Assembly: GCA_011364925.1 (NCBI GenBank)
Contig: RDOA01000005.1
Location: 32,001 to 96,000, forward strand
DNA: 64,000 nucleotides
Direction of reading: 5' to 3'
Source: Promethearchaeota archaeon
Lineage (GTDB): Archaea > Asgardarchaeota > Lokiarchaeia > Sigyniarchaeales > SOKP01
Position 1 is the first letter of the stretch. The number at the start of each line of letters is the position of its first letter. Below are positions 22,721 through 57,732 of this stretch, one piece after another. Below the pieces are notes generated by a model. It did not search any database. It was not told where the DNA came from and saw only the letters and a program-made list of their open reading frames with translations. The translations under genes were made by a program, and so were the position numbers.

Positions 22721-23242
22721 TTAGTACATTTCTGACTTCGAAAACAATAGCGCGAAACAACCGTAAAATATTCCGTTTACAACCCCGCTTATTAAGAATG
22801 CGATCAATGTCATAGTTGGGATGAGTACTGTTATACCATAAAAATTCAATAGTGTAACAGGATTTACGAACGCTAATACGCCTAAAGCTGCAGCACCAAT
22901 CAATGCAGCGAGCATCCAACCTCCAAAGCTACCTCCTTTACCGTCCCCCGTGCGTCCAGCTACTAATGCCGCAACAAATGGAGAAACTATAAATCCAATA
23001 TTTTGAATTAACGAAGCACCAAATAAACCGGAGGAAATATCAGTAAATATTGAAGTGATCACATTTCCCGGCATGTTAATAACAGGGCCGAAGAATATGA
23101 GTAATAAAATTAACGGATCGCTACTTATAGCGCTAAAAAGGAGGTTTAAATCACTACTTATAGTTTGCGCAATTATAACAAATAGGAAGTTTAAACCAAT
23201 AAAAGCCAGTAGACTGAAACCTAGCGCTTTACCTAGCCCGAT
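22721..23242 (-). CDS. Membrane protein, probable ATC start (MGLGKALGFSLLAFIGLNF...)
   Basis: Frame is open 56 codons upstream of ATG 23074 and bounded by TGA TGA; GAGGT upstream; the extension is a TM helix. Confidence 0.7.
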   Translation of the reverse strand: MGLGKALGFSLLAFIGLNFLFVIIAQTISSDLNLLFSAISSDPLILLLIFFGPVINMPGNVITSIFTDISSGLFGASLIQNIGFIVSPFVAALVAGRTGDGKGGSFGGWMLAALIGAAALGVLAFVNPVTLLNFYGITVLIPTMTLIAFLISGVVNGIFYGCFALLFSKSEMY

Positions 23243-23472
23243 TTTTCATCAACCTCTTTTTATAATCTATATTCAATTTAAATGTTTGATTCTATGTAAA
23301 AATTATTTAAATTTATTTATTTAAATTTAATTAAGTCCAATTTTTTATGTCGAATTTTATTAATTCTAGAAAATTAAGTTGAAAAAAGCCTTGAATTGGT
23401 GAAAATTACACAAATTTTTAGTAATTTCTTCTATATTTTAATAATTAGAATTTTTAATAATAATTTAAGGTT

Positions 23473-24510
23473 ATGAGAGAGAATCAAAATAAGTTCCATA
23501 TCGGGAAATTGAAACATCGTTTTCTCAAAGAAATGTTAGATAATTTTGTGTCATCTACACATTTAAAAAACAATCGAGTCGTTGTAGGCTCACAAATAGG
23601 AGAAGACGCTGCAGTGATCGATATGGGCGATAAGTATTTAGTTTCGAAAACAGATCCTATAACATTTGTAACAGATGAAATAGGATATTATGCGGTTCAC
23701 ATTAATGTTAACGATGTAGTATGCACAGGAGCAATACCAAGATGGTTTCAATCAACCATATTGTTACCTGCTGGACGAACTGATGCAGATTTAATTGAAT
23801 ATATATTTAAAAATATCCAAGATACATGTAGATCTTTAGGAATCACTGTAATTGGTGGACACACCGAAATTACAACAGGTCTTAATAGACCAATAATAAT
23901 TGGTTCCCTCCTCGGAGAAGTTGAGAAAGAGAAATTAGTGTTATCCTCTGGAGCAAAAGCAAATGATTCAATTATACTAACTAAGGGTATATTCATTGAA
24001 GGGACTTCGATAATAGCTCGTGAAAAAGAAACCATATTAAAACAAAAAGGTTTTTCTAATGATTTCATAGAAAAATGTAAAAATTTTCTGTATAATCCAG
24101 GTATTAGCGTTTTTAAAGAAGCAATCACATCTAACGATAATTTTCCTATAACATCTATGCACGATCCGACTGAAGGGGGTCTCTTTTGCGGACTTGCTGA
24201 GTTAGCAATAGCATCTGAATTAGGATTATCAATCAAAAAAGAACTCATCAATATCTTACCAGAACCGCTAGAACTAAGTAAAGTTTTTGAAATAGACCCA
24301 TATAGCACAATTTCTTCTGGATCTCTTTTAATTTCAATCAATGAGAAGTATAGCGAAGATTTAATTCATTTATTAAAAAAAAATGGGATTCTTGCTTCAA
24401 AAATCGGAAAATTTACATCAGCAAAAGAAGAATATTTTATCCTTGATGAAAATCGTAAGAAATTACCAATGAACTATACTGAAATTGACGAAATTACTAA
24501 AATTGTGTAA
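23473..24510 (+). CDS. AIR synthase-related protein (HypE/PurM superfamily)
   Basis: IGEDAAV, KTDPIT, NVNDV, IGGHTE, MHDPTEGG. Confidence 0.9.
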   Translation: MRENQNKFHIGKLKHRFLKEMLDNFVSSTHLKNNRVVVGSQIGEDAAVIDMGDKYLVSKTDPITFVTDEIGYYAVHINVNDVVCTGAIPRWFQSTILLPAGRTDADLIEYIFKNIQDTCRSLGITVIGGHTEITTGLNRPIIIGSLLGEVEKEKLVLSSGAKANDSIILTKGIFIEGTSIIAREKETILKQKGFSNDFIEKCKNFLYNPGISVFKEAITSNDNFPITSMHDPTEGGLFCGLAELAIASELGLSIKKELINILPEPLELSKVFEIDPYSTISSGSLLISINEKYSEDLIHLLKKNGILASKIGKFTSAKEEYFILDENRKKLPMNYTEIDEITKIV

Positions 24511-24687
24511 AAAAATTAGTTTGGTAACATAAATTTTACTTTTTTAAATAAAGAGATTGGTTATTATGCTAATACTAAGATTTTTATTATTGAATTTTCA
24601 AAACTAATATATACGGGTGTATTTTAAAAATTAATAATAAAGGGTTGTTTTATCAAAATATATATGATTAATATACTAAATTAAATT

Positions 24688-26616
24688 TTGATTATTGTGG
24701 TAAATAAGGAGCTACTTACTATACTGAAATCCATTGGAGAGAAAGCGAAAGGAGAAGCATTTACACTTAAGATGAATTCTCACGTTTTTTTTAACATTTT
24801 GGAATCTAATAACAATTCATTATTGGAATTTAAAGAAGAAATTAAAAAAGAATGGGAAAAGTTTAAAATTTTAAACCAGAATAGAATTATTAAGAAAACT
24901 TACTCTACATTTTTTTTCCAATATTTTCATAACTATTTCAAATATTACCTCCAAAATTTTTGTGGATTTGATACCAGCTCGTTAAAATTGATAATAAAAG
25001 AGAAAATATCTGACGACCAGTTATTTTTAGAGTATAGCTATACCCTATCTCCCGAAGAACAGGATTATTTTCGGGAATTCCGTGAGAATTTTGACGACGG
25101 TGCAGATGGAATAACTACTCCATTTGGTTATCTTTATCTCGTTGTAGCAATTTTGGGAGTAGTGTTAAGAAAGCTTCTGAAAGAAAAATTTTTTATAATT
25201 TTAGATGGAGCTGTATTAAAGAATGGTGAGAATAATAACACTTTAAAATTTCTAGTTGTTATAAAAAACAGTCACGATGAGCTCTTTGCTAACTATTATT
25301 ATATGTATTTAATATATTTTTTGAAATATTTTAAAGATATTCCAAAATCCTATTTTGATAAGCTTCTAAAAGGGAGAGAGAAAGTATATCAGATTGCGAT
25401 TGAAGAATATTCTTTTGCTAAAGATAAACTTGTTGATCTGTTGTATTACTTCTATAAAAAGTGTAATCTCCTTCAAAATTTCTCACCACTTCTAGATTTT
25501 TTAAATTTCGTGTGTAGCCGAGTCGAAGACTCTGTATTTCCTAAATTGGATATCATCAGAAAAGAGTTCTTACAAAACTTTGATTATTCTGAAGAAAAAA
25601 AAAATTCATTGCTTCGAATTTTTGATTTCATTGATAAGAAATCTACCCTATATAGTACATTTCAGGCGAACAACCTCCCAAGCCACAAAGCACAATTTAA
25701 CTTGTTTCTGTTGTATACAAAATACTTTTTTGGCGGTGGAAGCTTAGAGGCTTTGGAAGTTGGAGATTTTTTACTATTACCCGCGGATTTTAAAGAAGCG
25801 TTGAATGCAACCAATAATCAAATCGAAAATACAATTACTGCTACTACTATAAAAGACATTAGAGAATTTTTGGATAATTTTTCAATCGCATCGAATTTAG
25901 AGAATCCAAATCTAATTTTTAGAATTATTTTTGGGAAGGAAATTTCCCAGATTAATTACGACTTCTTTAAAGCTTTCTTACATAGTTTAAACACTAGCAT
26001 TCAGCGTTTAATAGATAAAGAAAATAAAATTTTAGAAGAAGACCCTAACAACGAGCCATTAACCTTTAAGTTAGTAGTTGATCATATTTGTAGGATGCTA
26101 TACACTTTAATAGATAAAATTTTTATAAGAAAACTTCCAGGACAAGCATCTAAAAACTTTATTGACCCTAGAAGCAGATATATTGGGAGAAATATAGCTT
26201 TGAGGGTATTGGAATTGTTCATTTTCAGCGACTTAAATGTCTCAGACGATGTGTGGCCTGATTACATAATAAGTATGAAAAAAGATGTTTTAACAAAAGA
26301 CTTAGAAAAATTCAATGTGAAAATTCCAGAAAATCTGTTCTATAACTACGAAGATATTGCAAGATTCGTCGTTACCTTTAATTTTCTCCCCAGTAATCAG
26401 CCTTTATTCGAAGAATGGGTAATCAATGGAATAATGATGCCGATAAACGAATTTATTTTAAAGATTCATAGTTTAATTAAAGATAAGGCTAAAGGTGTTG
26501 AAATTCACGAAATTCTCTATAATTACTTCATTAATAATATAGAAGGAATAAATAATCATCAAGAATTAGAATTTGTTTGTCAACAGCTCTCCGTTGTTTG
26601 GAACAATTCGAAGTAA
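24688..26616 (+). CDS. Hypothetical protein (642 aa, helical)
   Basis: Long ORF with no recognised motif. Confidence 0.75.
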   Translation: MIIVVNKELLTILKSIGEKAKGEAFTLKMNSHVFFNILESNNNSLLEFKEEIKKEWEKFKILNQNRIIKKTYSTFFFQYFHNYFKYYLQNFCGFDTSSLKLIIKEKISDDQLFLEYSYTLSPEEQDYFREFRENFDDGADGITTPFGYLYLVVAILGVVLRKLLKEKFFIILDGAVLKNGENNNTLKFLVVIKNSHDELFANYYYMYLIYFLKYFKDIPKSYFDKLLKGREKVYQIAIEEYSFAKDKLVDLLYYFYKKCNLLQNFSPLLDFLNFVCSRVEDSVFPKLDIIRKEFLQNFDYSEEKKNSLLRIFDFIDKKSTLYSTFQANNLPSHKAQFNLFLLYTKYFFGGGSLEALEVGDFLLLPADFKEALNATNNQIENTITATTIKDIREFLDNFSIASNLENPNLIFRIIFGKEISQINYDFFKAFLHSLNTSIQRLIDKENKILEEDPNNEPLTFKLVVDHICRMLYTLIDKIFIRKLPGQASKNFIDPRSRYIGRNIALRVLELFIFSDLNVSDDVWPDYIISMKKDVLTKDLEKFNVKIPENLFYNYEDIARFVVTFNFLPSNQPLFEEWVINGIMMPINEFILKIHSLIKDKAKGVEIHEILYNYFINNIEGINNHQELEFVCQQLSVVWNNSK

Positions 26617-26637
26617 ATCCAAAAAGTAAATATCAAT

Positions 26638-27141
26638 TCATGAGATTTCAAATATTTGGCAAAAATCTTCGAAATTATTCTCAACATCAAGTATTGGCGC
26701 CCTAATTTCTTTGATTTGATTAATGTTACTTGTTGTAATTAAACCAGAAATCATTTTAATATAATTATTGAATTGTTCATCTATTTGATTTAAATTTTCA
26801 ACACATAAGATTGTTGGGTAAGGTAAATTCCTAAAACTTTCAAAAAAAAGAATGTCTAATTTGAAAGGGCTCTTTTCTAACCATTTTATCAGATCTTCCA
26901 AATTAATTTCATCTTTAAGAAAAATTGCGCTCTCACCAGCTTTATTCTGTATAATTGAAAAAACTGCACCAGATTTAGAAAATCTATAAGAATCTTTTCC
27001 TTCTTCATCGATTTGGTGTTCGTGTATATATTTTATTACACCTACTTTTAAGTTCAGTTCAAATTTCAATTTACTTATAAGATTCTCAATAAGAATCGTC
27101 TTTCCTGAACCAGAATACCCAATCACATTAATTATTTTCAT
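26638..27141 (-). CDS. mobB: Molybdopterin-guanine dinucleotide biosynthesis protein B
   Basis: GYSGSGKT, VIKYIHEH, GKDSYRF. Confidence 0.9.
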   Translation of the reverse strand: MKIINVIGYSGSGKTILIENLISKLKFELNLKVGVIKYIHEHQIDEEGKDSYRFSKSGAVFSIIQNKAGESAIFLKDEINLEDLIKWLEKSPFKLDILFFESFRNLPYPTILCVENLNQIDEQFNNYIKMISGLITTSNINQIKEIRAPILDVENNFEDFCQIFEIS

Positions 27142-27263
27142 TTAAAACTGCCAAATCTTAACTTTTTTAAAAAATCCTAGAGATTTAATATAAGTATTAA
27201 TATCTAAAAAGTGTTAAAAGAATTAACTTTCCATTGAGACAAACGAAATAGTTCCGTCTAATC

Positions 27264-29264
27264 ATGACCACGAAAAATGAAATAATTGTATTCGACGCCA
27301 ATTTCTTTATTTGCATGAATTCCATTCGAGCAAAAAACATACTGGAAAATTTAAAATCAGCTGCTTCAGATCTAGGTTTTGTATATTACACAAGTACCGT
27401 TGTCTTTGATGAAATTAAAGCCTCGAGTACGTATCGAGACAAGTTTCAAAACATTATAAAAGTTGAAAAAATAGAAGAATTAGAGATTGACTCAATTAAA
27501 AACGACCTAAGCACTGAAGGTATTCGTTTTCCTGCTCAAGATCCTGATTTATCCTTATTATCATTATCTCAGAAATTACTCGATGATGACAACAATCGTA
27601 TGATCAATTTAGTTTCAGACGATTTTAAACTTGTAAAAAATGCTAATATATTCTTCCATGGAAAAATAAATATTTTGTCTCTTTCGAGTTTTTTATTAAA
27701 AATCCATAGAACAATCCCAAATAAACAATTACGAAGCTATTTTAAAAATTTATGGAAAAAAAGTTTGAACTACACCTTAGCATATATGATAGAACGCTCT
27801 AAAATCTATCCTGCTGAAGAAAAGATCACATGGTTAATTGAAAAAGCAATAAGTGTTACCCAAGACTCAATTATTACCCAAGATGCGCGCTATGGTGATA
27901 ATCAAAAGGATCATGTTAAATTTGAGATTGGAAAAAGTAAATACGAGAATGAAATTACTATTTGTGAAAAATATATTGGAAATCAAAAACTTGCGAATAG
28001 TGAAGAAAAATACCTTACGGGAATAATCAATTTCCTTGAAAATTTAAAAATATCTCGCGAGTATGTAATACAAGCTCGCAAGGCGATTGAAAAACAGGAA
28101 TCAAAAGATGCGGTAAAATATTTAAAAAAGGGAAATGGATTCTTAATTTCGCTTTTGCAAATTGCTTCAGGGCAGTTATCCAATCCCAAGGATTATGAGA
28201 TTGTCGAACAATTAATCTGTAGCGAAATTTCAAAGATGGAGTTCTTAAGAGCCTTCATCTTAATTTCGTTAGGAAGGGTTAATAATGCTATTGATTCGTT
28301 AGAACGAGCAGCGCTTTTTTCTACGATAATTCATAATCATCAAACTTGTTTAACTTTAAATTATGTAAAAGCCTTAATCCTTTTGTTTCATGGGTTATAC
28401 AACAACGCGATTATGGCATATAACTTTACGGAAGAGCTAGCAGACATCTATAACGATGAACGCCTTAAACTCAAATGTGCTATAGGAAAAAGTATAGCGC
28501 TTTATATTCAAGGTGAGGATAGCGAAACAGCAATGGCAATAATGGAGGAGATTTCATTAATGGACATGGAGAAAAACTTCTTAGACGCGGTTATCGTATT
28601 TGGCGAGCTCGGGGATTATTTCTTAGCCTTAGGTCACTCCCAATTAGCAGCAAATTTGTATAATGAGGCGCTAGAAATAAGTATTGACTACAATCTCAAG
28701 ATCAGGAGCGATATTCTCATAGAAAAATTAAAACGTTCATACATCGCAACAGTTCTGAATGGGTATTCCACAGAGGATATTATGGTTGATAAATTGGATG
28801 TCTTGCTTAATAGGGCTTACGCAGTAAAGGAAATTGAGAAATATAATGAACAGATTAAGAAAATATCTAGCTTTAACATTTTATTTTATACACCCTTTCC
28901 CTATATCACTGGTAAAAAAAAATTAGTCCCATATATAAAACTTCCTAAAGAGCTACAAGAGGATTATTTAGAAGTTGTTCATTTCGAAAAAATTGGTGAC
29001 AAAGATGGCTCTAAATATCTTTTCGTAGTTTCTCACTATGAACTTGGATTACTTGGAATTATTCTAAAGACTGATGAGAGGGTAACTGGTATAGCAGAAA
29101 ATTATACTTTGAAATTAAAACCTACATCAAAAGTTAAAATCTACAATCCATCCGCAAATTTAAAAGATACCTACTTGGTTAGAGCGATCGTAGAGGTTGT
29201 ATCAAAAGATGAATGCGAAATTGTATATTCACTACCTTCTTTCTTTAAGGCGTTAAATATATAA
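27264..29264 (+). CDS. PIN domain-TPR fusion protein
   Basis: VFDANF, VFDEI, DPDLSLL, LVSDDF, then TPR helices and a beta-rich C-terminus. Confidence 0.75.
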   Translation: MTTKNEIIVFDANFFICMNSIRAKNILENLKSAASDLGFVYYTSTVVFDEIKASSTYRDKFQNIIKVEKIEELEIDSIKNDLSTEGIRFPAQDPDLSLLSLSQKLLDDDNNRMINLVSDDFKLVKNANIFFHGKINILSLSSFLLKIHRTIPNKQLRSYFKNLWKKSLNYTLAYMIERSKIYPAEEKITWLIEKAISVTQDSIITQDARYGDNQKDHVKFEIGKSKYENEITICEKYIGNQKLANSEEKYLTGIINFLENLKISREYVIQARKAIEKQESKDAVKYLKKGNGFLISLLQIASGQLSNPKDYEIVEQLICSEISKMEFLRAFILISLGRVNNAIDSLERAALFSTIIHNHQTCLTLNYVKALILLFHGLYNNAIMAYNFTEELADIYNDERLKLKCAIGKSIALYIQGEDSETAMAIMEEISLMDMEKNFLDAVIVFGELGDYFLALGHSQLAANLYNEALEISIDYNLKIRSDILIEKLKRSYIATVLNGYSTEDIMVDKLDVLLNRAYAVKEIEKYNEQIKKISSFNILFYTPFPYITGKKKLVPYIKLPKELQEDYLEVVHFEKIGDKDGSKYLFVVSHYELGLLGIILKTDERVTGIAENYTLKLKPTSKVKIYNPSANLKDTYLVRAIVEVVSKDECEIVYSLPSFFKALNI

Positions 29265-29265
29265 C

Positions 29266-29538
29266 CTAATATTTTCTTAATTGTTTATCTCGTTGGCTAA
29301 CTTGATGACCGTGAATAGCACAACTTATGCAGTAATAATTCTTCTTACTGGGGGTCTGAATAATAGTCCCTTCTTTCTTGAGTTCTGTAAACATTCTCCC
29401 ATCGACTAATGAAACTCGTCTTGTGACAGCTTTTGCTTTACTACGAGGTACAAAACGCCCACACTTATAACATTGAACGCGATTATAATGACCCTTGCTT
29501 GAGCCACTTTTTCCGCCACTTCTTCTTTTTTTAGGAAT
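29266..29538 (-). CDS. rps26e: 30S ribosomal protein eS26, ATT start; absent from ORF track
   Basis: (M)PKKRRSGGKSGSSKGH...VQCYKCGRFVPRSKA...YCISCAIH...RKY*. Confidence 0.92.
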   Translation of the reverse strand: MPKKRRSGGKSGSSKGHYNRVQCYKCGRFVPRSKAKAVTRRVSLVDGRMFTELKKEGTIIQTPSKKNYYCISCAIHGHQVSQRDKQLRKY

Positions 29539-29662
29539 AAAAATCAGCTTTTTTTTCTGTTTTCTACATCTTAGAATAAGACAAACCTTAAAAAATTTAT
29601 TCTTTCACTGTGAAAATTAGCATAAACGTACTCATTTTTAGCTTTATTTCACGAAGAAATGG

Positions 29663-30358
29663 TTAACTTTCATTGATCGCTTCGATTTTACTTAAAGCTT
29701 TAAAAGAATATACTAACCTTTGAATCACTGTCAAAATGAGTAAGCCTGTGAATACTATTGTGAAAATAGGAAAAAACAAAGTGAAAGGCGCTCCATACAA
29801 AAGATTAGAAATGAAATAGATCCAATACTCAATAATAAAGGCTAACCAAAGAACAATCATTCTTTCAGCTCTTTCCATAAAACCTACGCCTTTCATGTCA
29901 ATACCCTCGTTTTCAGCTCTCGCGCGAACATACGAAATCATAATGATTAAAAACATAATCGCAAATCCAATTAGATAATTGAAATAACCCCCTATTATTA
30001 ACCCTAAAACTAGTAAAGCATCAGATAGTCGATCTAGATTCGAATCTAAAAAAGCTCCTGATTTTGAAATATTTTCTGTCCTGCGAGCAACTTCTCCATC
30101 AAAAACATCAAAGGCTCCTGCCCAGAACATTGTAAATGGGACAATCCACGCTATTTGAAAAGGAAAATGCAACCCTCCGTACGCGAGTAGAACAGCTACT
30201 ACTACAGAACAAAAAAATCCGCAATAAGACAAGAAATTTGGTGTAAATCCATGTTTAATTAGTATTTTGACTGGATAATCAACAAATTTATTTAACAGTC
30301 TTCGCTGGTTATTCCGTTTTGCGTTAGCTTGTTCAGATTTGCTCAAATTTTCAGCCAA
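29663..30358 (-). CDS. pgsA: CDP-alcohol phosphatidyltransferase (archaetidylinositol-phosphate synthase-like)
   Basis: TPNFLS, DVFDGEVAR...GAFLDSNLDR, SYVRARAE, GFMERAER. Confidence 0.9.
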   Translation of the reverse strand: MAENLSKSEQANAKRNNQRRLLNKFVDYPVKILIKHGFTPNFLSYCGFFCSVVVAVLLAYGGLHFPFQIAWIVPFTMFWAGAFDVFDGEVARRTENISKSGAFLDSNLDRLSDALLVLGLIIGGYFNYLIGFAIMFLIIMISYVRARAENEGIDMKGVGFMERAERMIVLWLAFIIEYWIYFISNLLYGAPFTLFFPIFTIVFTGLLILTVIQRLVYSFKALSKIEAINES

Positions 30359-30410
30359 TATTAGTTTTATCGATAATTAATTTTAAAAGTACTTTAAAAT
30401 AAAAAATTTT

Positions 30411-31007
30411 TCATACTAATAATTGCAGATTGATTTTGATTAAACGAATCGTGGAAGATGCTAAATATGAGCGATGTCCTAAGCTCAGATTTGTCAAATT
30501 CATCTTTTTCAATTCATTATCAATTAGAAAATCACCGCTTTGATCTCCAATGAGAAATAATAAATTATCTTTTGACTTCAATTTCCTAAACTCTTTTCTA
30601 TAATCATTACCAGATTCGTTTAACACATATATTTTATAATTTCGTTTAGTAAAATCCCTAATTGCATCAAAAATACTTTTCTCGGAGTATATTACTGATT
30701 CAAGTGTTTTAGGGTGGTTTTCTGTTTTGGTCTTATTCTTAATCAAGCCTACAAAAGAATCTGTCAGTAAAATTTCATTTTTCGGAAAAGTCTCATTATT
30801 TAGATAATTAGAATCAAAGATATATGTTCCATAATTATCAAGAAAAATCCAAATTTGAATATCTTTTTCAATTTCTTTTTCATTTAGAATAGCTGATAAG
30901 ACACATCTTGAAATAACATCAAGCCTTCCAGATGACCCCGGGATATCTTTGATATTATACTTACTGATGTTAACAGTTGCTGATTTTAAAAAATAGATAA
31001 TACTCAT
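30411..31007 (-). CDS. trmY: tRNA (pseudouridine54-N1)-methyltransferase
   Basis: PGSSGRLDVISRC, FLIGDQSG, LSLG SPOUT knot. Confidence 0.8.
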   Translation of the reverse strand: MSIIYFLKSATVNISKYNIKDIPGSSGRLDVISRCVLSAILNEKEIEKDIQIWIFLDNYGTYIFDSNYLNNETFPKNEILLTDSFVGLIKNKTKTENHPKTLESVIYSEKSIFDAIRDFTKRNYKIYVLNESGNDYRKEFRKLKSKDNLLFLIGDQSGDFLIDNELKKMNLTNLSLGHRSYLASSTIRLIKINLQLLV

Positions 31008-31423: not shown

Positions 31424-31425
31424 TA

Positions 31426-32192: not shown

Positions 32193-32226
32193 TATAATCT
32201 AGTATGAAATGACAAATTAGAATGAA

Positions 32227-35380: not shown

Positions 35381-36337
35381 TTACTTTTTATTGATTCCAA
35401 GATCTAGATTCTCAATTAATTCTTGAAATCTATTTCGGACAGTAACCTCTGTCACTTGGGACACTTTAGCAATTATTCTTTGAGTTCTTCGCTCATCAGT
35501 CAAGATGCTTGCAGCGTAGATCGCCGCCGCACATACTCCAGTTGGTCCCCGACCTGAAGTTAATCCTCTTATTTCAGCCATTTTAATAACTTTTTTAGCC
35601 ATTTTATGGCATTGTGTAGAAAGTCCTAACTCAGATACAAACCGAGTTAGAAAATCCATAGGTTTGGTTGGATTTAGATTTAATTCTAACTCTTTAGAGA
35701 TAAATCTGTAGGACCTTCCAATTTCCTTTTTGTTAACTCGAGCAACATCAGCAATTTCATTTAAAGTGCGAGGTACTTTATACATTCTGCATGCTGCATA
35801 CAAACTTGCTGCTGCAACACCTTCAATACTCCGCCCCCTTATTAAATGCGCTTCAACAGCATCTCTATAAATTTTTGCAGAACATTCGCGAAGATTTTTT
35901 TGAAGATCGAGATTTGAAGCCATTCGATCTAATTCACTTAAAGCAAAGGTTAGATTTCTTTCTGTAGCGTCTGACACTCTAATTCTCGATTGCCATTTTC
36001 TTAAACGGTAAATTTGACCTCTAATTTTCGCCGAAATTTCTTTACCAAAAATATCCCTATTTTTCCAGTCAATCATTGTACTGAGTCCTTTGTCATGAAT
36101 CATATATGTCATAGGCGCTCCAGTTCTAGTTCGTTTCTTTTTTTGATCAGAGTCAAATGCACGCCATTCTGGACCCTGATCTATATGTTTTTCACTGTGA
36201 ACTAAACCACATTTTTCACAGACTAACAAACCTCTGTTTTCATCAAATAATATATTTTGACCACACTCACTACATATTTCATGACTACGGTCAGTATTCT
36301 CTTCTAAGAAAGCATTACTTTGATTCCAACTTGAAAT
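35381..36337 (-). CDS. tfb: Transcription initiation factor IIB, ATT start
   Basis: CSECG...CEKCG zinc ribbon, GPEWRAF, two cyclin repeats; TAA GCT ATT preceded by GAGGGAG. Confidence 0.95.
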
Positions 36338-36388
36338 AGCTTACTCCCTCTTAAAGATTGGTTCTTTAATAGAAAGGTTTCATTGATT

Positions 36389-49048: not shown

Positions 49049-50230
49049 GTGATTATGATTACATCAAATAATGTAGATTTTACTACAAAGTATATAATTG
49101 AGGTAAAATTTAAGATTAAAGGTGTTGTTGAGAAATCAGACATTGTGGGGGCCGTTTTTGGACAAACTGAAGGCCTCCTCTTGGATTTAGATTTAAGAGA
49201 TCTTCAGAAGTCTGGAAGAATCGGTCGGATTGAAGTTGATAACGAATCTAAGGAAGGAGTTTCCGAAGGAATCATTAAGATACCTTCGAGTTTAACACGT
49301 AAAGAGACGGCTCTATTAGCAGCAACAGTTGAAACTGTCACTCGTGTAGGTCCTTGTGAAGCTGAAATCCGTCTAATGGAAATAAGAGATGTACGAGAAA
49401 CGAAACGTAAACGAATAATAGAGAGGGCGGCTGTATTATTAAAAGAATGGGACCAAAAATCTCTAGATCATAGTGAAATTGAAGAGAAAATAGACGCAGG
49501 CATCAAACTCGGAGAAATTACTGCTTGGGGTCCAGAAAATTTACCTGCAGGTCCTGATGTCGAAACAAATCCAGATTTAATTATTGTTGAAGGCAGAGCT
49601 GATGTTCTGAATTTACTACGTATAGAAGTAAAAAATACAATTGCGGTTCAAGGTACGCAAGTACCCAAATCAGTTTTAAAATTAATAGAATCGAAGAATT
49701 CAACAACTGCTTTCTTAGATGGCGATAGAGGTGGCGACATTATTTTAAACGAGCTTTTACAACTAACCAAAATTGATTACATCGCGCGAGCTCCCGAAGG
49801 CTTAGAAGTAGAAGAACTTACGCGTAAACAAATGATAAAAGCTCTCCAAAGTAAAAAACCTTCAGAAAATAAAACTGAATCACGCTCAAAAGATAAAAAA
49901 GCATTAACTGGTAAGGATGCATTATTTCAAAAACTTATGAAAAAATTGAAGGTAAAAAATCACTCAATCATAAAAGAAAGTTTAGAACAAATAGAACCGG
50001 GACACAGTATTGGATTTAATAAGAGTTTAGAGAAATTATTTGATATACCAGCTGGAGAACTTTTTGAAAAGATTAAAGATTATCAATCGACACAATTTCT
50101 TGTGATTGATGGCATCTTAACGGGGCGTCTGATTTCACTTTTGGTGCCCATGAAAATAAAGTTTATTGCTTCTAAAAATAAGGAAGAAGATCTTAGAGTT
50201 CCCTCAGATATCATAACATTCTTCTTTTAA
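49049..50230 (+). CDS. dnaG: Archaeal DnaG-like primase/exosome-associated protein
   Basis: GAVFGQTEGLL, LQKSGRIGRI, IVEGRADV, FLDGDRGG (TOPRIM). Confidence 0.95.
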   Translation: MIMITSNNVDFTTKYIIEVKFKIKGVVEKSDIVGAVFGQTEGLLLDLDLRDLQKSGRIGRIEVDNESKEGVSEGIIKIPSSLTRKETALLAATVETVTRVGPCEAEIRLMEIRDVRETKRKRIIERAAVLLKEWDQKSLDHSEIEEKIDAGIKLGEITAWGPENLPAGPDVETNPDLIIVEGRADVLNLLRIEVKNTIAVQGTQVPKSVLKLIESKNSTTAFLDGDRGGDIILNELLQLTKIDYIARAPEGLEVEELTRKQMIKALQSKKPSENKTESRSKDKKALTGKDALFQKLMKKLKVKNHSIIKESLEQIEPGHSIGFNKSLEKLFDIPAGELFEKIKDYQSTQFLVIDGILTGRLISLLVPMKIKFIASKNKEEDLRVPSDIITFFF

Positions 50231-50268
50231 TTTGTATCTTTTTCTGAAGTCTAATTTTAAGATCTCAA

Positions 50269-50688
50269 TTATCTTTTTGTACATTTTACATTTATTGGTA
50301 ATCCTTCAGCTATAGAGTTCGAGACTATGCAATATTCCCTAAACTTTTCAATGCATTTGTTAATCTCTACTTCCGAATTAGCTTCTTTCGGAGTAAATTT
50401 CAGCTCAACATTGACAGTCGCTAATCTTAAAAGCATTTTAGGACCAGAATGAGATAACTTCCCTTCTACTTCTATTTTTAAATCTTCCAGCTCGATATTC
50501 TCCTTCTGAAGACAATAAATAAATGAGGTACCTAAGCACCCTCCTATCCCTATTAATAAATACTCAACCGCACTTGGACCGAGATCTGTTCCGTGAAACG
50601 AGATTGGTTCGTCTACATCAAATTCTATAAATTTCCTTACAGAAGCTTTAAAATGAAGGTCTTTACTATAGTCTAATAACACTTTCAT
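50269..50688 (-). CDS. OsmC family protein
   Basis: GPSAVEYLL..GGC and YCIVSNS. Confidence 0.88.
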   Translation of the reverse strand: MKVLLDYSKDLHFKASVRKFIEFDVDEPISFHGTDLGPSAVEYLLIGIGGCLGTSFIYCLQKENIELEDLKIEVEGKLSHSGPKMLLRLATVNVELKFTPKEANSEVEINKCIEKFREYCIVSNSIAEGLPINVKCTKR

Positions 50689-50748
50689 AACAATAAAACC
50701 TTAAAAACAACTTATTGTTTTAAAAGAAATAAAATTTGTTTAAAAACT

Positions 50749-51000
50749 CTACCCAATGTTTAAGACGAAATTAACTAGAGTCCAAATTAGCTGAATAACA
50801 TACGAGATAACGCCTAATATTAAAATTCCAACAGCACAAATCTTAAAAACAAGAAAATAATCTTTCCTACTCGGTCTATTTGCGATTTTAAATATTCTTC
50901 TAGTATTCTGAAAAAAGACTCCTATACGCTCGTAAAGGGATAGTTTCTTCCCCTTGTCGTATCTCTCGTATTTCTCATACTTTGGGTAACTATTAGACAC
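50749..51000 (-). CDS. secE: Protein translocase SecE/Sec61 gamma
   Basis: RRIFKIANRPSRKDY followed by a C-terminal TM. Confidence 0.85.
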   Translation of the reverse strand: MSNSYPKYEKYERYDKGKKLSLYERIGVFFQNTRRIFKIANRPSRKDYFLVFKICAVGILILGVISYVIQLIWTLVNFVLNIG

Positions 51001-51055
51001 AATTAAAGTAAAAATAAATATTTAAAAAATTTAACTGTTATTCCCAATTTCTTCT

Positions 51056-51970
51056 TTATTCTTCGGTAATATCAAGAATATTTGATAAGAAAATCTCGCT
51101 GTTAAACGGCTCTAGGTCGTCATACCCTTGTCCTATCCCCACAAAAAGAATAGGTTTTTTCGTTTCGTAAGAAATTGAAAGTGCGGCCCCCCCCTTTGCA
51201 TCAGCATCAAATTTAGTAAGGATATTTGCATCGATTCCAACATTATTATTAAATTCTTTGGCTTGATTTAGGGCGTCATTTCCAGCTAGACTATCCCCTA
51301 TGAACAAAGTCAAATCAGGTTCGATTACGCGAACTATTTTCTGCATCTCTCGCATCAAATTTTTATTACTCACTTGTCTTCCTGCAGTATCTACGAGTAC
51401 AACATTAACATTTTTTGATTTTGCGTGTTGTAACGCATCATAGGCTACGCTCGCAGGATCTGATTTATATTCGTGTTTGATTACCCTAATCCCTACTTTT
51501 TGCATATGATAAGAGAGTTGTTCGATAGCAGCTGCTCTAAAAGTATCCGAAGCTGCAGCTACGGAAGAAATACCGTTTTTTTTTAAGTAATGGGCTATTT
51601 TTGCAATTGTGGTGGTTTTTCCCGTTCCGTTAACTCCTAAAAAACAAATAACATATGGATTACCTTCTTGATTTTTCTTTTTAATTTCGTCCAGTAAATC
51701 AATTTGTTTTTCTGGAGTTAAAATTTCTCTGATTACACCTTTTAAGATTTCGAAAAGTAATTTTTTTTTTGACGTAAGCCTTCCTATTTGTTCACCCTTG
51801 AGAGAATCTCTAATTTTTTGACATAAAATATCTGCGGTTTCAGTAGCTACATCATTTCCAATCAGTAATAAATTTAGTTCACTTAAAGCACTTTCTAAGT
51901 TTTCTGATGTGAGTGTTTTTTTGACGAATGTAGAAAAAATACTGCTTATTTTTTTCATTAATATGACCAC
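51056..51970 (-). CDS. ftsY: SRP receptor GTPase
   Basis: GVNGTGKTTT, DTFRAAA, DTAGR, TKFD, DAKGG, GQGYDDL. Confidence 0.95.
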   Translation of the reverse strand: MVILMKKISSIFSTFVKKTLTSENLESALSELNLLLIGNDVATETADILCQKIRDSLKGEQIGRLTSKKKLLFEILKGVIREILTPEKQIDLLDEIKKKNQEGNPYVICFLGVNGTGKTTTIAKIAHYLKKNGISSVAAASDTFRAAAIEQLSYHMQKVGIRVIKHEYKSDPASVAYDALQHAKSKNVNVVLVDTAGRQVSNKNLMREMQKIVRVIEPDLTLFIGDSLAGNDALNQAKEFNNNVGIDANILTKFDADAKGGAALSISYETKKPILFVGIGQGYDDLEPFNSEIFLSNILDITEE

Positions 51971-52011
51971 TTGAATTAAAAATCAATGTATTCTTAAAAA
52001 AAGGATTCAAA

Positions 52012-52428
52012 CTATTGTTGAGACATTCTATTTTGTAGAATTTGATTCATACTCTGAAGGTTTAAATCTAAGTTGTATATTCTCTCTTGGAGAAATTTTA
52101 ACTGAGTATTATGCTGTTCGATAAGTTTTGTAACGAATTCAATTGCTTCCTCAACAGTTTTTTCGATAACCGTGTCGTTTTTAACATACACAAGGACTTT
52201 TTTAGTCTCTTTCAAAGTTGCCTTAATGTTGACTAAACCTCCAATCGGGATAAGAATTTCATCATTATCGTTAACCCCATCCTTAAGATTATCTAAGGTT
52301 AGTTTTGTCGTGTATAAATTCCCAAGAGACGCATTTATTATTTCAAATTGACCTTGAAATATATCTCGTTGTTCCTTAATATACCGATATTGACTTAATT
52401 GTACCTCTAAACTCTGATCATTTTCCAT
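52012..52428 (-). CDS. pfdA: Prefoldin alpha subunit
   Basis: EILIPIGG, VIEKTVEEA; operon position. Confidence 0.9.
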   Translation of the reverse strand: MENDQSLEVQLSQYRYIKEQRDIFQGQFEIINASLGNLYTTKLTLDNLKDGVNDNDEILIPIGGLVNIKATLKETKKVLVYVKNDTVIEKTVEEAIEFVTKLIEQHNTQLKFLQERIYNLDLNLQSMNQILQNRMSQQ

Positions 52429-52458
52429 ATAAAATCAATTAATGCTGTAATTGTATTT

Positions 52459-52686
52459 TTATTTAGACAATTCTCTTATTAAATAATCTTGACTCTCTTC
52501 CGGAGTTATTTCTTTTATTTCTTGGATATTTATCTGTCTTCTAAGAATCCCAATTGATGTGATTTGACTTAAAGCTTTTTCTAAAGCATCTTTTTCTTTT
52601 AAAGCTCGAACTTCTTTACGAAATAAATATCTTCTATGTTTTTTTTTATAGGTGCCAATAATCCTATAGATTTTAATTTCTGACAT
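52459..52686 (-). CDS. rpl18a: 50S ribosomal protein eL20 (L18a/LX)
   Basis: IYRIIG, FRKEVRA, ALEK; operon position. Confidence 0.88.
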   Translation of the reverse strand: MSEIKIYRIIGTYKKKHRRYLFRKEVRALKEKDALEKALSQITSIGILRRQINIQEIKEITPEESQDYLIRELSK

Positions 52687-52792
52687 GATTTAACCTTTCA
52701 AATCTATCAACGAAGTTAACCAAGATAATTATTTTAAAAATATTAAATTTTGCTTTTTGTTGAACAGTAATATAACGCTGATAATCTCAGCC

Positions 52793-53473
52793 CTATAACA
52801 TCAATACGTTAGTTAAACGCATCATCTCTGGACCAGTGCATTCATATCCAAATATACCACTCTGATCATTAACTATTGCACCTGAGGAGAGATACGGAAT
52901 TCCTCTGTTAACGGTGGATACATCGGTTTCTTTGACTTTTAGAATATCCGAAATAATATCTATTTCTTCGTCAGTGGTAAGAGGATGAACTAGACACCCG
53001 TTATTATTTGTCAACGATATAGAACCGGGAAGATAATTATTAACAAACTCGTAAATTACCGTCTCAACACATAAAGTATTTTCAATTTGGTCTTTATAAT
53101 CCTGTAAAAGAGTAGAAATTATAGCGCCTTTATCGTTACATAATATTAGATTTCCAAAAGCATTGTCTAGCGATTCAAGAATCCCAATTTGATAACCACT
53201 ATTTATTTCATTCGAATAATTCTTCAAACGTTGAATTTCTTCTTCCCTTGTAATGTAGGGAACAATTGTCCCATATTTATTACTTGCGGTATATACTCCA
53301 ATTAAATTTGAATTGTTAATTGAGATAGGATAAAAGGGAACTTCAAATACGCTTTTAATTTTTTCAATAACAGGTTTAAGTAGCGTAGCTGGATACAAAC
53401 CAAACAAATTATTAACTGCTAAGTACACTCCGACAGAATTTTTACCAAATATTTGGTACTTTAAAATTGTCAT
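52793..53473 (-). CDS. eif6: Translation initiation factor 6
   Basis: GNLILCNDKGA, LVHP, TVNRG, TGPEM. Confidence 0.93.
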   Translation of the reverse strand: MTILKYQIFGKNSVGVYLAVNNLFGLYPATLLKPVIEKIKSVFEVPFYPISINNSNLIGVYTASNKYGTIVPYITREEEIQRLKNYSNEINSGYQIGILESLDNAFGNLILCNDKGAIISTLLQDYKDQIENTLCVETVIYEFVNNYLPGSISLTNNNGCLVHPLTTDEEIDIISDILKVKETDVSTVNRGIPYLSSGAIVNDQSGIFGYECTGPEMMRLTNVLML

Positions 53474-53609
53474 TTAATGTATTGGATAGACTTCTAAACC
53501 ATAAATATTTTATTAAAACGAATAGGATAAGTCATTTTCACATTCAGAGAACTGTTTTATCATAATTTTGAGTTAATCTTTATTAATAAAGAATACTCAA
53601 TTATTATCT

Positions 53610-55859
53610 ATGATAAATTGGGTTATTGCCTTTTTCTATTTTCTAGAAGAACTTGGTTTATTAAGAATTGAGACCATGGTTACGATAAACCTTCCAATGT
53701 TGTTAATATTCAGGGGACTATACAGCATTACATATTATCTTAATTACAACAAGCGATTTGGCAGCGATCCTGAAAATAGATTGTCGTTATTTACTAAAAA
53801 GGAGACCAGTTACTTTTTTCTAAAACAAATAATAATAATTCTTTTTGGAACTATCCATTTGACTTTTACACTGTTTATTAGCTTTTATTCTTTAATGATG
53901 ACTGGAAGATACATTACTAGCTTTGCTGAAACGATTAAAAATCGGCTACTAAAGACTCTAGGAAAACTCATAACATTTTTCGCTCCACTCCTAGGGATAG
54001 TTTGGTACGCCCTTGTAGGATCAGATCTCTACTCCATTGCTGCTATTGGAGTAAGTACCATAGCTTTTTTACACTATGGCTCAAAAATTTCTCTCCTTTC
54101 TTTGAAAGAAATCTTGGAAAAATATAATAAAAGGCGAATCGAGAAAATCCCAAAAATTATTCAATATATACTATTAATCTTCTTAATTGCTTTCCCAACG
54201 ACTGTAATAATTGGAACTGGTTTGTATAAACCTCAGGAGAAACAAACATTTATGGTTCCGATGCGAGATGGAGTTCGATTAGCGACTGACATTTATTTTG
54301 CACCTGGATCTTTTGGAACACCTCGTCCGGTAATTCTAGTTCGAACACCCTATGGTAAATCTGGTTGGGCATATGATCTATATTCCTCACTTTACTTAAT
54401 TCAAGATTATCATTTAGTCATTCAAGATCTTAGAGGTACTCACGATTCTGAGGGTGGTGAAGATTATCTACTTTTCATAAATTCCTATAAGGACGGTGTT
54501 GACACAATTTACTGGATATTAAATCAGAGTTGGTCGAACGGCAAGATAGCTAGCGCAGGTGTTTCTGCTTTATGTATTAACCAGTACTATTACGCTGGAA
54601 TGGGTCCAAGTGGATTATTAGCTCAACAATTATGGTTTGGAACACCAGAATTGTTTGATCACGCAATCTTTCAAGGATCTTACCATAAGTCTTCAGTTGA
54701 AACTTGGATAAAATCGACCAGTCCATCCAATTGGCAATACCAAGTGGATACAATATTTTCAAAGACAATCCCTAAAAATGAAATTCTTTACAACTCAACA
54801 TCATTATCCTATCCTTTAGGACCTCGTTATTCCAAAGTTAATGTTTATGGAATTCATGTTGGTGGATGGTATGACCACTTTTTACAAGGCACGATAGATG
54901 GTTTTATTGGATACGACGATAATGGAACTTCTAGAGCTCAAGGACATCAAAAACTCGTAATGGGTCCTTGGACTCATGGGAGCGTGTATGGTGGGCAACA
55001 AGGAGAATTAATCTATCCCGAAAATTCTAACGGATTTAATTTATTGCTCGATTGGGACATGGAAGTATTTGACGCTGCTTTCTTTGGAACTCCAGCGGAT
55101 TGGACTGGTGGAAGGGTCGCCTATTATTTAATGGGCGATGTCGATGTCAATTCAAATAAATGGAACTACTGGAGATATGCTTACGATTGGCCTTTAGATT
55201 ATGTAGATGATAAATGGTATTTCACGTTTGATGGTGGATTAAGTAATAACTCTGCTGGTGCTGAAAATAAGAGTTTCTCCTTTCTGTTCGATCCTCGAAA
55301 CCCTGTTCCAAACTTGGGAGGACAAAACCAACCCTTCGATTTAGCGGGTCCCATGGATCAATCATCGATAGAAAGCCGATCTGATGTACTGATCTTCGAA
55401 ACCCCTGTATTGACTGAAGACATCGAAACAGTGGGAAGAATATGGGGTAATTTATTTGTTACTTCAAATTGTACTGATACAGACTTCACAATTAAGTTAA
55501 CTGATGTATATCCTGATGGGCGTTCAATGTTAATAACCGATGGTTCACTCACAGTTCGATACAGATATAACTACACATCAGAAGTTTTTATGTCAGGGAA
55601 TCAAACAGACATTTATGAACTTTTAATTGATTGTTGGTCAACTGCTTATGTTTTTGGTGCGGGGCATAGAATAAGAGTAGCTATTTCAAGCTCAAATTAT
55701 CCTCGCTATGCTATAAATCCTAACACGGGAGCACCATTAGCTCGCGAATATTTAGACGCTGATATTGCGAACAATACTCTCTTTGTAGGTCCAGGATATA
55801 ATTCTTGCATTATTCTACCAAGATTAGTAAATATGAGTAGTACTCATAAATTTTATTAA
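53610..55859 (+). CDS. CocE/NonD (X-Pro dipeptidyl-peptidase-like) hydrolase with N-terminal TM domain
   Basis: MRDGVRLATD, RTPY, QDLRG, GVSAL nucleophile, GGWYD, GPWTH. Confidence 0.88.
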   Translation: MINWVIAFFYFLEELGLLRIETMVTINLPMLLIFRGLYSITYYLNYNKRFGSDPENRLSLFTKKETSYFFLKQIIIILFGTIHLTFTLFISFYSLMMTGRYITSFAETIKNRLLKTLGKLITFFAPLLGIVWYALVGSDLYSIAAIGVSTIAFLHYGSKISLLSLKEILEKYNKRRIEKIPKIIQYILLIFLIAFPTTVIIGTGLYKPQEKQTFMVPMRDGVRLATDIYFAPGSFGTPRPVILVRTPYGKSGWAYDLYSSLYLIQDYHLVIQDLRGTHDSEGGEDYLLFINSYKDGVDTIYWILNQSWSNGKIASAGVSALCINQYYYAGMGPSGLLAQQLWFGTPELFDHAIFQGSYHKSSVETWIKSTSPSNWQYQVDTIFSKTIPKNEILYNSTSLSYPLGPRYSKVNVYGIHVGGWYDHFLQGTIDGFIGYDDNGTSRAQGHQKLVMGPWTHGSVYGGQQGELIYPENSNGFNLLLDWDMEVFDAAFFGTPADWTGGRVAYYLMGDVDVNSNKWNYWRYAYDWPLDYVDDKWYFTFDGGLSNNSAGAENKSFSFLFDPRNPVPNLGGQNQPFDLAGPMDQSSIESRSDVLIFETPVLTEDIETVGRIWGNLFVTSNCTDTDFTIKLTDVYPDGRSMLITDGSLTVRYRYNYTSEVFMSGNQTDIYELLIDCWSTAYVFGAGHRIRVAISSSNYPRYAINPNTGAPLAREYLDADIANNTLFVGPGYNSCIILPRLVNMSSTHKFY

Positions 55860-55869
55860 CATTTTTTTT

Positions 55870-56106
55870 CTATTTTAACATTTCGAGGAATTCATTTTCA
55901 GTTATGAAGGTTACGCCTAATTTACGCGCTTTAATAGAGTCCTTGGATTCATCTTTTTTATTATTAGTAACTAAATACCACAAGTCGGTAGATACATGTT
56001 CTCTAACGATTCCTCCTTTCTCAGTTACTCTTTTCTTCGCTTCTTCTTTTCCCATTGTTTTTAAATCTGACGGAAAGAAGAATTTTATTAAAGATAGATC
56101 TGCTAT
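55870..56106 (-). CDS. Stand-alone BRCT-domain protein, probable ATA start
   Basis: KGGIVREHVS...YLVTN...KARKLGVTFITENEFLEML; GGTGA TAA AAA ATA upstream. Confidence 0.8.
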   Translation of the reverse strand: MADLSLIKFFFPSDLKTMGKEEAKKRVTEKGGIVREHVSTDLWYLVTNNKKDESKDSIKARKLGVTFITENEFLEMLK

Positions 56107-56234
56107 TTTTTATCACCTTCTAACTGTGATAGGATCAACAACTATTTCTAATACGAAGAAAAAGATTTAACTTTTAAAACTAATGGACCAAAGGAAATTT
56201 ATAATTTTTAAAATGAGAAGAATTTACTAAGGTT

Positions 56235-56699
56235 TCATTCTGCTAAATAGCATACTACTAAACCATCGATATTCTTTGTTGCTCTTATTTTAATCTTTCT
56301 TGGTGGTTTTTGAATTCCACGGGCCCATATCGCTTCATTAACCTCTTGCGAAATAACTAATGACTCTGGTTTGAAATGGCGCTCCATGAATTCTTTTAGG
56401 TATCTAACTCCCTTTTTTGCCCATTTATTTCGTGGACCTCGTCTTGCTTTTGCGAGAGGAACAAGATATATACGCTCATCTATGATTTCTTCTTTAGGGG
56501 CTTCTTCCTCTTCTACTTCTTTAAATTCTTCGAGTTCTTCCTCAAAAATTTCGCTAACTTCTTCTTGTTCAGATATTTCATCTAAACTGAATTCTTCGAT
56601 TTCTTCAATTTTGTCTTCTTCTTCCTCAATATCCTCAGCCTCAACTAGCTCCTCTTCTAAATCATCCAAACTTATTTCTTTCGATTTCTTCTTTGCCAT
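56235..56699 (-). CDS. rpl31e: 50S ribosomal protein eL31 with acidic N-terminal extension
   Basis: ERIYLVPL, VNEAIWARGIQKPPRKI. Confidence 0.93.
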   Translation of the reverse strand: MAKKKSKEISLDDLEEELVEAEDIEEEEDKIEEIEEFSLDEISEQEEVSEIFEEELEEFKEVEEEEAPKEEIIDERIYLVPLAKARRGPRNKWAKKGVRYLKEFMERHFKPESLVISQEVNEAIWARGIQKPPRKIKIRATKNIDGLVVCYLAE

Positions 56700-56723
56700 T
56701 TTACATCAATTTAAATATATTAT

Positions 56724-56885
56724 TTAATCTCTCTTTAATCTTGTATTTCGCCATTCTCTTCTAGAATAAGGACTATCTCTTACTTTTCCACCTGTTTTCC
56801 TAATAATCCAATTAGGTAGTGAACGGCTTTGATTCATCTTTTTTGCCCTTCTTAACTTCGAGGGTAAATCTTTGTTACGCGCCAT
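56724..56885 (-). CDS. rpl39e: 50S ribosomal protein eL39; absent from ORF track
   Basis: MARNKDLPSKLRRAKKMNQSRSLPNWIIRKTGGKVR...RREWRNTRLKRD*. Confidence 0.93.
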   Translation of the reverse strand: MARNKDLPSKLRRAKKMNQSRSLPNWIIRKTGGKVRDSPYSRREWRNTRLKRD

Positions 56886-56900
56886 TATTTCACATCTATC

Positions 56901-57239
56901 TTATTTTTTAATATTAAATTCCTTTTTACTTCCGGCTGTTATTCTCTCTAGAATCTTTTTAAATTCTTTATCTGGTAATGGAGTAGCTCCGCGAAGTCTT
57001 CCTGATTGAAAGAGTTGTATTAGTTGAAGTTCGATTTGTTCTGCGAATTGAGGTTTTACTATTCTAATATTTTCTAATCTCTGACGTCCTTCTTGACTTA
57101 GTATCTTTCTCATAATTTGATACTTTTGTTTATTGTATTGCTGTTCTTGTTGTTCAGCTATTTGTTGTTGAAGTGCATGTTGTTGAAGCTGCTCTAGTTT
57201 TTTTCTTCTAATGTTTTCTAATTCTTCTTCATCACTCAA
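56901..57239 (-). CDS. PDCD5/TFAR19-like DNA-binding protein
   Basis: ELENIRRKKL, RQRLENIRIVKP, ELQLIQL. Confidence 0.9.
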   Translation of the reverse strand: MSDEEELENIRRKKLEQLQQHALQQQIAEQQEQQYNKQKYQIMRKILSQEGRQRLENIRIVKPQFAEQIELQLIQLFQSGRLRGATPLPDKEFKKILERITAGSKKEFNIKK

Positions 57240-57270
57240 ACTTGAAAACCTTAACTTATTTACTTTTGAA

Positions 57271-57732
57271 TTATTTTCTAAGAATACTATAAGCAGTTCT
57301 CTCTAACAGACTTGTTCCTTCTGGAGAAACAACCCTACCATCTCTTTCTTGCTTTACTATTAAATTTGCATCTTCCAGTTGTTGTAATGCCACTCGTATA
57401 ATTTTTCCACTTCCTCTAGCACTGTGATGGAGACCTGGCCCATTCTTGTTCTTTCCACCATAATATTTTCGAAGTTTATTAACTCCAATTGGACCAAATT
57501 TCTTTACTTTTCTTAATATTGATGCACACCTAACATACCAGAAATTTTCGTGATCGATCGGAGCTAATTCCTTAAAAAACGCAGTCTTCCAAAACTGACT
57601 TCCTTCAGGTGGCTTAATCTCGGGGAATTCTCGTAATTTTTCTGCAATTGTGTTGATCAGCTTCTCTGGTTCAACGATATATATGCTAATAATTATTACA
57701 CCAAGAATTTTAATATTGTATGATACATTCAA
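57271..57732 (-). CDS. rps19e: 30S ribosomal protein eS19 (true start possibly ATT 57690)
   Basis: KELAP, FWYVRCASILRK, YGG, GSGKIIRVALQQLE. Confidence 0.95.
   Translation of the reverse strand: MNVSYNIKILGVIIISIYIVEPEKLINTIAEKLREFPEIKPPEGSQFWKTAFFKELAPIDHENFWYVRCASILRKVKKFGPIGVNKLRKYYGGKNKNGPGLHHSARGSGKIIRVALQQLEDANLIVKQERDGRVVSPEGTSLLERTAYSILRK

Follow-up and report, generated by a model that had tools for sequence, protein, structure and literature searches.

The window examined here, a 64,000-nucleotide stretch (contig C70:32001-96000) of the 3.92 Mb, 33% GC assembly of a Promethearchaeota archaeon (G000, the source genome), contains eight genes that appear to begin at ATT, ATA or ATC (ATH; AUH in RNA) instead of a canonical ATG, GTG or TTG codon. 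The GTDB genus of the source includes the metagenome-assembled genome Loki_b31, and its family, within the Lokiarchaeia/Promethearchaeia, includes Loki_b32. An earlier note on this stretch had interpreted these codons, together with the Shine-Dalgarno (SD)-like motifs preceding them, as systematic AUH initiation. All eight codons, and the motifs named, are present where the note had placed them, seven on the minus strand and that of cbiO on the plus strand (Table 1).

ATH-initiated genes of the window

At seven of the eight sites no ATG, GTG or TTG separates the ATH codon from the in-frame stop that precedes it, two more than the five for which the note had excluded a canonical start; the exception is rps19e, with a TTG 14 codons upstream. 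The proposal that N-terminal motifs precede the first canonical codon is borne out by Pfam matches for tfb, rps26e, the DEDDh exonuclease, the BRCT protein and rps19e (Table 1). For tfb, starting at the first canonical codon, TTG 36229, would cost half of the zinc ribbon. The 3' end of the 16S rRNA was read from the source's own contig C86 and predicts the SD consensus AGGAGGTGA. Duplex energies reveal that the ATH site pairs better with this tail than the first canonical codon does at all eight sites, the SD of rps26e being weak (-3.4 kcal/mol).

Table 1. Coordinates, start codons and domain matches of the ATH-initiated genes in the window
Feature	Coordinates	Strand	Start codon and context	First canonical codon (codons downstream)	Pfam domain starting before it (residues)
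tfb (TFIIB), 318 aa	35381..36337	-	ATT 36337; stop 2 codons upstream	36	Zn ribbon 21-61
SD-like GAGGGAG of tfb	36344..36350	-	Duplex ~-6.9 kcal/mol vs -2.4 at first canonical codon		
rps26e (eS26), 90 aa	29266..29538	-	ATT 29538; first ATG 48 codons in	48	1-89
DEDDh exonuclease, 195 aa	40040..40627	-	ATA 40627	90	PF00929, 19-182
Membrane protein, 173 aa	22721..23242	-	ATC 23242; double stop directly upstream	56	
BRCT protein, 78 aa	55870..56106	-	ATA 56106	17	PF00533, 7-76
PDGLE-like membrane protein of cbi/ECF cluster, 102 aa	31115..31423	-	ATA 31423; PDGLE match under Pfam cut-off	21	
cbiO-type ECF ATPase, 249 aa	33090..33839	+	ATT 33090 (33087 likewise ATT)	5	
rps19e (eS19), 139 aa	57271..57690	-	ATT 57690	99	3-138

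Alignment of orthologs places start codons in the same columns. The tfb column holds ATH in 21 of 21 aligned same-genus orthologs (ATT 16, ATA 4, ATC 1) and ATG in other families, and the DEDDh column holds ATA in eight of 11 orthologs, with one each of ATC, ATT and TTG. The ATT start proposed for cbiO stands, but at the second of two adjacent ATT codons, 33090 and not 33087, which is ATT in 22 of 25 family orthologs and ATG in none; as a GTG lies only five codons downstream (33105), this start is unforced in the source genome, although it is forced in many relatives. The ATT of rps26e does sit at the family methionine, in a column that reads ATT 18, ATG 8, TTG 2 and CTG 1 over 29 same-genus genomes. 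Among 20 orthologs of the membrane protein the codon is ATG in eight, TTG in seven, ATC in three and GTG in two; the three BRCT orthologs carry ATA, ATC and ATG, and most relatives have ATG at the position aligned with the PDGLE start, for which ATA 31423 aligns best of the two candidates offered (31423/31426). In rps19e, 28 of 30 family orthologs have ATG; the two ATT copies, those of the source and its closest relative, possess a newly gained SD that the ATG copies are without. Columns thus behave in two ways, labile (membrane protein, rps26e, rps19e, BRCT, PDGLE) or fixed (tfb, cbiO, DEDDh). Exchange restricted to start-type codons, next to a freely varying and often stop preceding codon, is the apparent signature of a start site. 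SDs are stronger for ATH than for ATG alleles, with medians of -6.1/-1.8, -6.3/-3.0 and -5.4/-1.6 kcal/mol in columns drawn from related, non-independent genomes.

The note had also called for a check for sequencing error. In public runs, contigs without a single difference span four of the starts: those of rps26e, tfb and DEDDh in run X1, which may be the source sample, and that of cbiO in run X2, from another study. No contig spanned the membrane-protein start. Assembly error is therefore excluded for four starts, and columns that swap start-type codons or are fixed at ATH lead to the same conclusion.

Genome-wide frequency and distribution

Genome-wide, the SD-orphan test considered N-terminal SD 5-mers with no canonical codon after them and compared ATH in in-frame and out-of-frame slots. 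ATH occupies 95 of 372 in-frame slots (25.5%) versus 46 of 744 out-of-frame slots (6.2%; p 1.3e-18), with ATT, ATA and ATC as the three most enriched of 58 codons and a spacing peak of 5-7 nt, as for canonical starts; at SD-like sites inside genes ATH reaches only 10.4%. The excess corresponds to 12-15% of strong-SD genes. An expectation-maximization (EM) start model in which only the SD was seeded, with all 61 codons at background, was run over 3,040 open reading frames (ORFs) and returned ATG 70.8, TTG 11.0, ATT 4.9, GTG 4.2, ATA 3.2, ATC 1.1, ACG 0.4 and CTG 0.3%, a total of ~9% for the three ATH codons. A simpler model yielded 13.6% (bootstrap 11-15%), with a misfit in the form of a spurious GAA component. 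The posterior for ATH exceeds 0.5 in 215 ORFs (7%) and 0.8 in 100 (3.3%), and 63 of the latter lie at least eight codons away from any canonical codon. Serine, a feature unused by the start model, occupies position 2 in 25% of these 63 starts, compared with a frequency of 17% at ATG starts and 7% after internal isoleucine (p 5e-6). High-confidence genes include what we take, by eye, to be rps28e, RadA-like, PheT-like and POP5-like genes and several small GTPases.

The ATH share of genes is best estimated at 7-13%, with a floor of 3%, which matches the six to eight of about 65 genes counted in the window. Ortholog columns, SD spacing statistics, the start model in which no codon was seeded and the residue-2 bias all agree with systematic AUH initiation.

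The relaxation is partial. Set against intergenic background, the enrichment is 45-fold for ATG, 8 for GTG, 5.4 for TTG, 1.3 for ATT, 1.0 for ATA, 1.1 for ATC, 1.1 for ACG and 0.3 for CTG, and the 16 genes around aIF1 start almost all with ATG across ~50 genomes. Equivalence of all ATN codons under AT pressure would remove most ATGs, yet ATG persists, and AUH codons are accordingly weak starts: the trait is weak-start use with fidelity retained. The near-equal use of ATT, ATA and ATC over background is as expected from mismatch tolerance. Relaxed third-position selection, as the earlier note had put it, thus holds for the weak AUH starts but understates both the preference for ATG and the breadth of the effect, since relaxation extends beyond the third position, with ACG used about as often per occurrence and CTG occasionally. 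About nine genes, a GatB-like gene among them, look ACG-started (contigs C50, C48, C24, C85) or CTG-started (C87, C35) behind strong SDs. Codon scans of the source genome revealed no TTH or GTH start class, GTA being borderline. Recoding of AUA to methionine was rejected: internal methionines align with ATA 17 times and with ATT 34 times, and this lack of preference for ATA indicates a standard code in which internal AUA is isoleucine.

The note had regarded the trait as one of this lineage. It is strongest in the source's family (f1), but extends beyond the source's genome and family. Two other f1 genomes, G017 and G134, display a significant ATH excess (13-18%). In the sister family f2, ATH starts account for 10 of 99 strong-SD genes, with ~10% in G030 and 3-9% in G032 (Ca. 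Harpocratesius repetitus), the latter non-significant alone; the thermosome subunit gene of G030 (C17 region L191-L210) appears to be ATT-started behind a strong SD. No ATH starts were detected in G033, a GC-rich genome of a third family (f4), whose forced-start cases were rejected as frameshifts. The trait is therefore graded, strongest in f1, present in f2 and undetected in f4. The same count in non-Asgard controls, which are plasmids only, gave 14 canonical and no ATH starts for a Methanocaldococcus plasmid and 88 canonical and one ATH start (~1%) for a Ligilactobacillus megaplasmid of 32% GC, versus 410 canonical and 84 ATH starts in the source genome (p 8e-7 with both plasmids pooled). 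When run freely on subsets of 300 genes, EM overfitted (spurious GAA, ACC) and gave no usable ranking of genomes; it was kept for the whole genome. Forced-start tests with close relatives produced false positives through conserved 5' untranslated regions, and the pairwise Met1 test against one genome yielded too few anchored cases.

Initiation machinery and alternative explanations

The single aIF1/SUI1 gene of the source genome begins at an ATT (C86, 10208, plus strand) 9 nt after an imperfect SD. A stop precedes this ATT by three codons, and none of the 40 codons after it is canonical. All 47 family loci start at ATH (44 ATT, 3 ATC), with no canonical codon before the zinc knuckle. In f5, f7, f10, f11 and one f2 genome the gene starts at ATA, and in many other Asgard families at ATG, GTG or TTG. 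ATH starts appear to be deliberately kept in genes such as aIF1, tfb and cbiO, and freely swapped in others. The earlier note had suggested inspecting the initiation factors and initiator tRNA for changes in fidelity residues; neither aIF1 nor the initiator tRNA showed any. The aIF1 protein matches solved structure 4mo0 (E 2e-23) and retains its zinc knuckle and basic loop as well as the GGT and ELQGDH motifs, and a fidelity-mutant (Sui- or IF3-deficient) state was rejected, aIF1 being single and intact. The initiator tRNA gene (G000 C44:24869-25001, minus strand) has anticodon CAU, A1 and three G-C pairs; the CAU anticodon is likewise present in five relatives. No second initiator-like copy was found where the gene sequence was read, in six genomes. 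This gene carries a T-arm intron in the source and an anticodon-loop intron in the five relatives, some with a second intron in the T arm (L440-L444). Owing to tRNA introns, ARAGORN missed most tRNAs, and an exact anticodon-arm pattern likewise missed most family genomes.

Starts are canonical in both copies of aIF1A, in aIF2-alpha and in aIF2-beta. The source genome holds two intact aIF1A paralogs (C53:29122-29328 and C101:16468-16674; L413, L417), while the four other genomes checked have one. The P-loop of its aIF2-gamma holds a 29-nt insert of bulge-helix-bulge (BHB) layout (C53:19121-19149, minus strand, L430), and GHVDHGKTT is restored once the insert is cut out at canonical sites; the same 29-30-nt insert is common to G050, G013 and G014 and absent from G134, G032, G033 and G138. 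In G017 (C11, L111-L130, minus strand, offset 22784), a DnaG-like primase gene seems to be interrupted by a short insert between VGAIFGQ and TEGLL, possibly a further mRNA intron.

With aIF1 and the initiator tRNA apparently intact, we favor, with moderate confidence, a model in which AUU, AUA and AUC, and rarely ACG and CUG, constitute a routine fourth, weak class of starts in this Lokiarchaeia family, sustained by SD anchoring, mismatch tolerance and self-limitation of aIF1. A strong SD would pair with the 16S tail and so hold the AUH codon in the P site, at a spacing of 5-7 nt. There the ordinary CAU initiator tRNA would pair at codon bases 1 and 2, the third-position mismatch being tolerated often enough to yield protein. 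AT-biased mutation would convert ATG to ATH, with survival where the SD compensates. In aIF1, tfb, cbiO and DEDDh the weak start would be actively retained, presumably limiting expression. Lastly, an intact aIF1 whose own AUU start lies behind a far-spaced SD may limit itself in the manner of infC, fixing fidelity at a permissive set-point. SD anchoring and tolerated mismatch are well supported by the sequence data, whereas the aIF1 feedback loop is proposed by analogy; both the wobble-mismatch route and the role of this loop as the cause are inferred.

Several points weigh against this model. While the codons, their conservation and exchange, their coupling to SDs and their frequency can be read directly, initiation at AUH codons is a prediction, if a highly probable one. 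The frequency depends on the model (3.3% at >0.8, 7% at >0.5, 9-14% by EM, where the GAA component is a misfit), and selection bias accounts for part of the SD strength seen in ATH genes called by the model. The non-Asgard comparison, as noted, is limited to plasmids. The aIF1 gene also starts at ATA in other families, and the loop may not be what sets the rate. More tentatively, and at less than even odds, the largest Lokiarchaeia family might possess a distinct AUH regime, affecting about a tenth of its proteome, in which the AUU-gated aIF1 loop tunes all AUH genes jointly as a global translational rheostat, a forerunner of the eukaryotic eIF1 stringency loop within the lineage closest to eukaryotes.

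An unlikely, though not negligible, alternative is that the AUH starts are real but stem from a hidden change in the machinery, such as a modified C34 (f5C-like), the 16S P site, the tails of uS9/uS13/uS19 or a diverged aIF2 or aIF1A. The low scores of the family's aIF1, aIF2-alpha and aIF2-gamma in Pfam models, below those of outgroup copies, would fit such a change, as would the two aIF1A genes and the candidate aIF2-gamma intron. Yet aIF1 retains its basic loop and its GGT and ELQGDH motifs, a wobble modification cannot yield ACG or CTG starts, and G134, which is without the aIF2-gamma insert, has equally many ATH starts.

Less probable still is the view that AUH starts are commonplace in many archaea that are AT-rich and SD-led, and escape notice since annotation is restricted to ATG, GTG and TTG. 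ATH starts in f2 and the ATA start of aIF1 in other Asgard families speak for this view; the following results speak against it. Matched ortholog pairs need a non-canonical start in 6 of 138 cases for the source versus 1 of 138 for G032, of equal GC, and in 10 of 219 versus 3 of 219 for G030, and fixed-prior calls amount to 54 of 1594 (3.4%) in f1 versus 12 of 924 (1.3%) in f2 and f4 combined. ATH is nearly absent from both control plasmids (0/14 and 1/89), and an annotation-dependent survey of 36 groups found one AUG-to-AUU switch per 61,358 starts (Belinky 2017, PMC5622118).

A true start elsewhere, at a downstream canonical codon or upstream through splicing, frameshift, readthrough or RNA editing, with ATH as coincidence or assembly error, is very improbable: isoleucine codons are plentiful at 33% GC, the genome appears to hold BHB mRNA introns and canonical alternatives exist for cbiO and rps19e, but conserved domains begin upstream of the first canonical codon, orthologs have ATG in the same column, A-to-I editing covers ATA only, the code is standard, and identical public contigs together with conservation over dozens of genomes rule out error. 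BHB splicing as a rescue of ATH genes was rejected, as it could serve one of 63, versus 12 of 300 ATG controls.

Annotation and known near-cognate starts

Returning to weak AUH starts, their use has consequences for annotation. The note's expectation that standard annotation truncates such genes holds for short or misplaced TFB entries, although NCBI sometimes calls ATH: in four of 120 public TFB homologs the entry opens at the ATH column and has the N-terminus of the family. A TFB identical to that of the source is also deposited as a 282-aa form, 36 residues short and without half its zinc ribbon, and other public entries begin at a GTG within the SD. The GTG within this motif frequently shares the frame of ATH and precedes it by three codons (57648-57732, 36337-36350, orthologs L005-L007), which leads gene callers to take the SD itself as the start. 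Reviews describe SD motifs as rare in Lokiarchaea (PMC7531240, PMC12993045), a rarity that may partly stem from misplaced starts. Work on eukaryote origins makes wide use of Asgard proteomes, both for mining and for expression, and gene finders shorten AUH-started proteins, the affected genes including aIF1, eS26, eS28, RadA-like, PheT-like and small GTPases.

The AUH starts reported here are almost certainly real, and while such starts are known singly elsewhere, a handful per bacterium, the genome scale appears to be new: 100-400 in one genome far exceeds that number. The literature search, from which subscription papers were mostly absent, found no paper on Asgard or genome-scale AUH starts. 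In mitochondria, initiation occurs at ATN codons, internal AUA is read as methionine by a modified tRNA, and animal mitochondria have no SDs. NCBI table 11 lists ATT, ATC, ATA and CTG as alternative initiators. As in mitochondria, any ATN can start a gene here; unlike there, AUA is internally isoleucine, an SD is needed and ATG retains a ~40-fold preference.

Archaeal start codons are reviewed as AUG, GUG and UUG (Schmitt 2020, PMC7531240), and ribosome profiling in Haloferax revealed near-cognate alternative start sites (PMC7261190). Weak GUG and UUG starts in prokaryotes are offset by stronger SDs, with ATG under purifying selection (Belinky 2017, PMC5622118). The same start-codon switching with SD compensation is seen here, except that the switching set includes AUU, AUA and AUC at a combined rate close to that of UUG, in contrast to the 1/61,358 AUG-to-AUU switches of that survey. 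In S. aureus, non-canonical starts lie behind extended SDs in infC, cvfC1, ccpN and citZ, with AUH at 10-30% efficiency (10.1101/2025.06.19.660503). Low GC, AUU or AUA behind strong SDs and conserved weak starts are common to both systems, but S. aureus has four sites genome-wide, versus 100-400 here, and a bacterial IF3 system.

The window sites resemble the SD-led AUH starts of infC, pcnB and ccpN in having no usable canonical start (7/8), a conserved N-terminus encoded from the AUH codon, a strong SD at normal spacing and an aligned ATG in orthologs. In archaea, binding of AUU mRNA by the Sulfolobus 30S subunit occurs without aIF1 but not in its presence (PMC4705826), and P. abyssi aIF1 proofreads by competing against tRNA accommodation (PMC6237735). 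The factor reportedly rejects AUU. AUH use on this scale opens to testing the long-standing question of why archaea, despite having aIF1, show less stringency than eukaryotes do, as well as the existence of an archaeal counterpart of the eIF1 and IF3 loops. Bacterial infC, encoding IF3, has an AUU or AUA start with translational autocontrol (Butler 1987, cited in PMC4705826), and eIF1 is autoregulated through poor context (Ivanov 2010, cited in PMC4705826). As in those systems, the gene for the fidelity factor itself opens with a conserved near-cognate codon among ATG-started neighbors. The differences are that the factor is here an archaeal aIF1 of SUI1 fold, with a feedback putatively assigned by analogy, and that hundreds of further genes, some of them essential, likewise begin at AUH codons.

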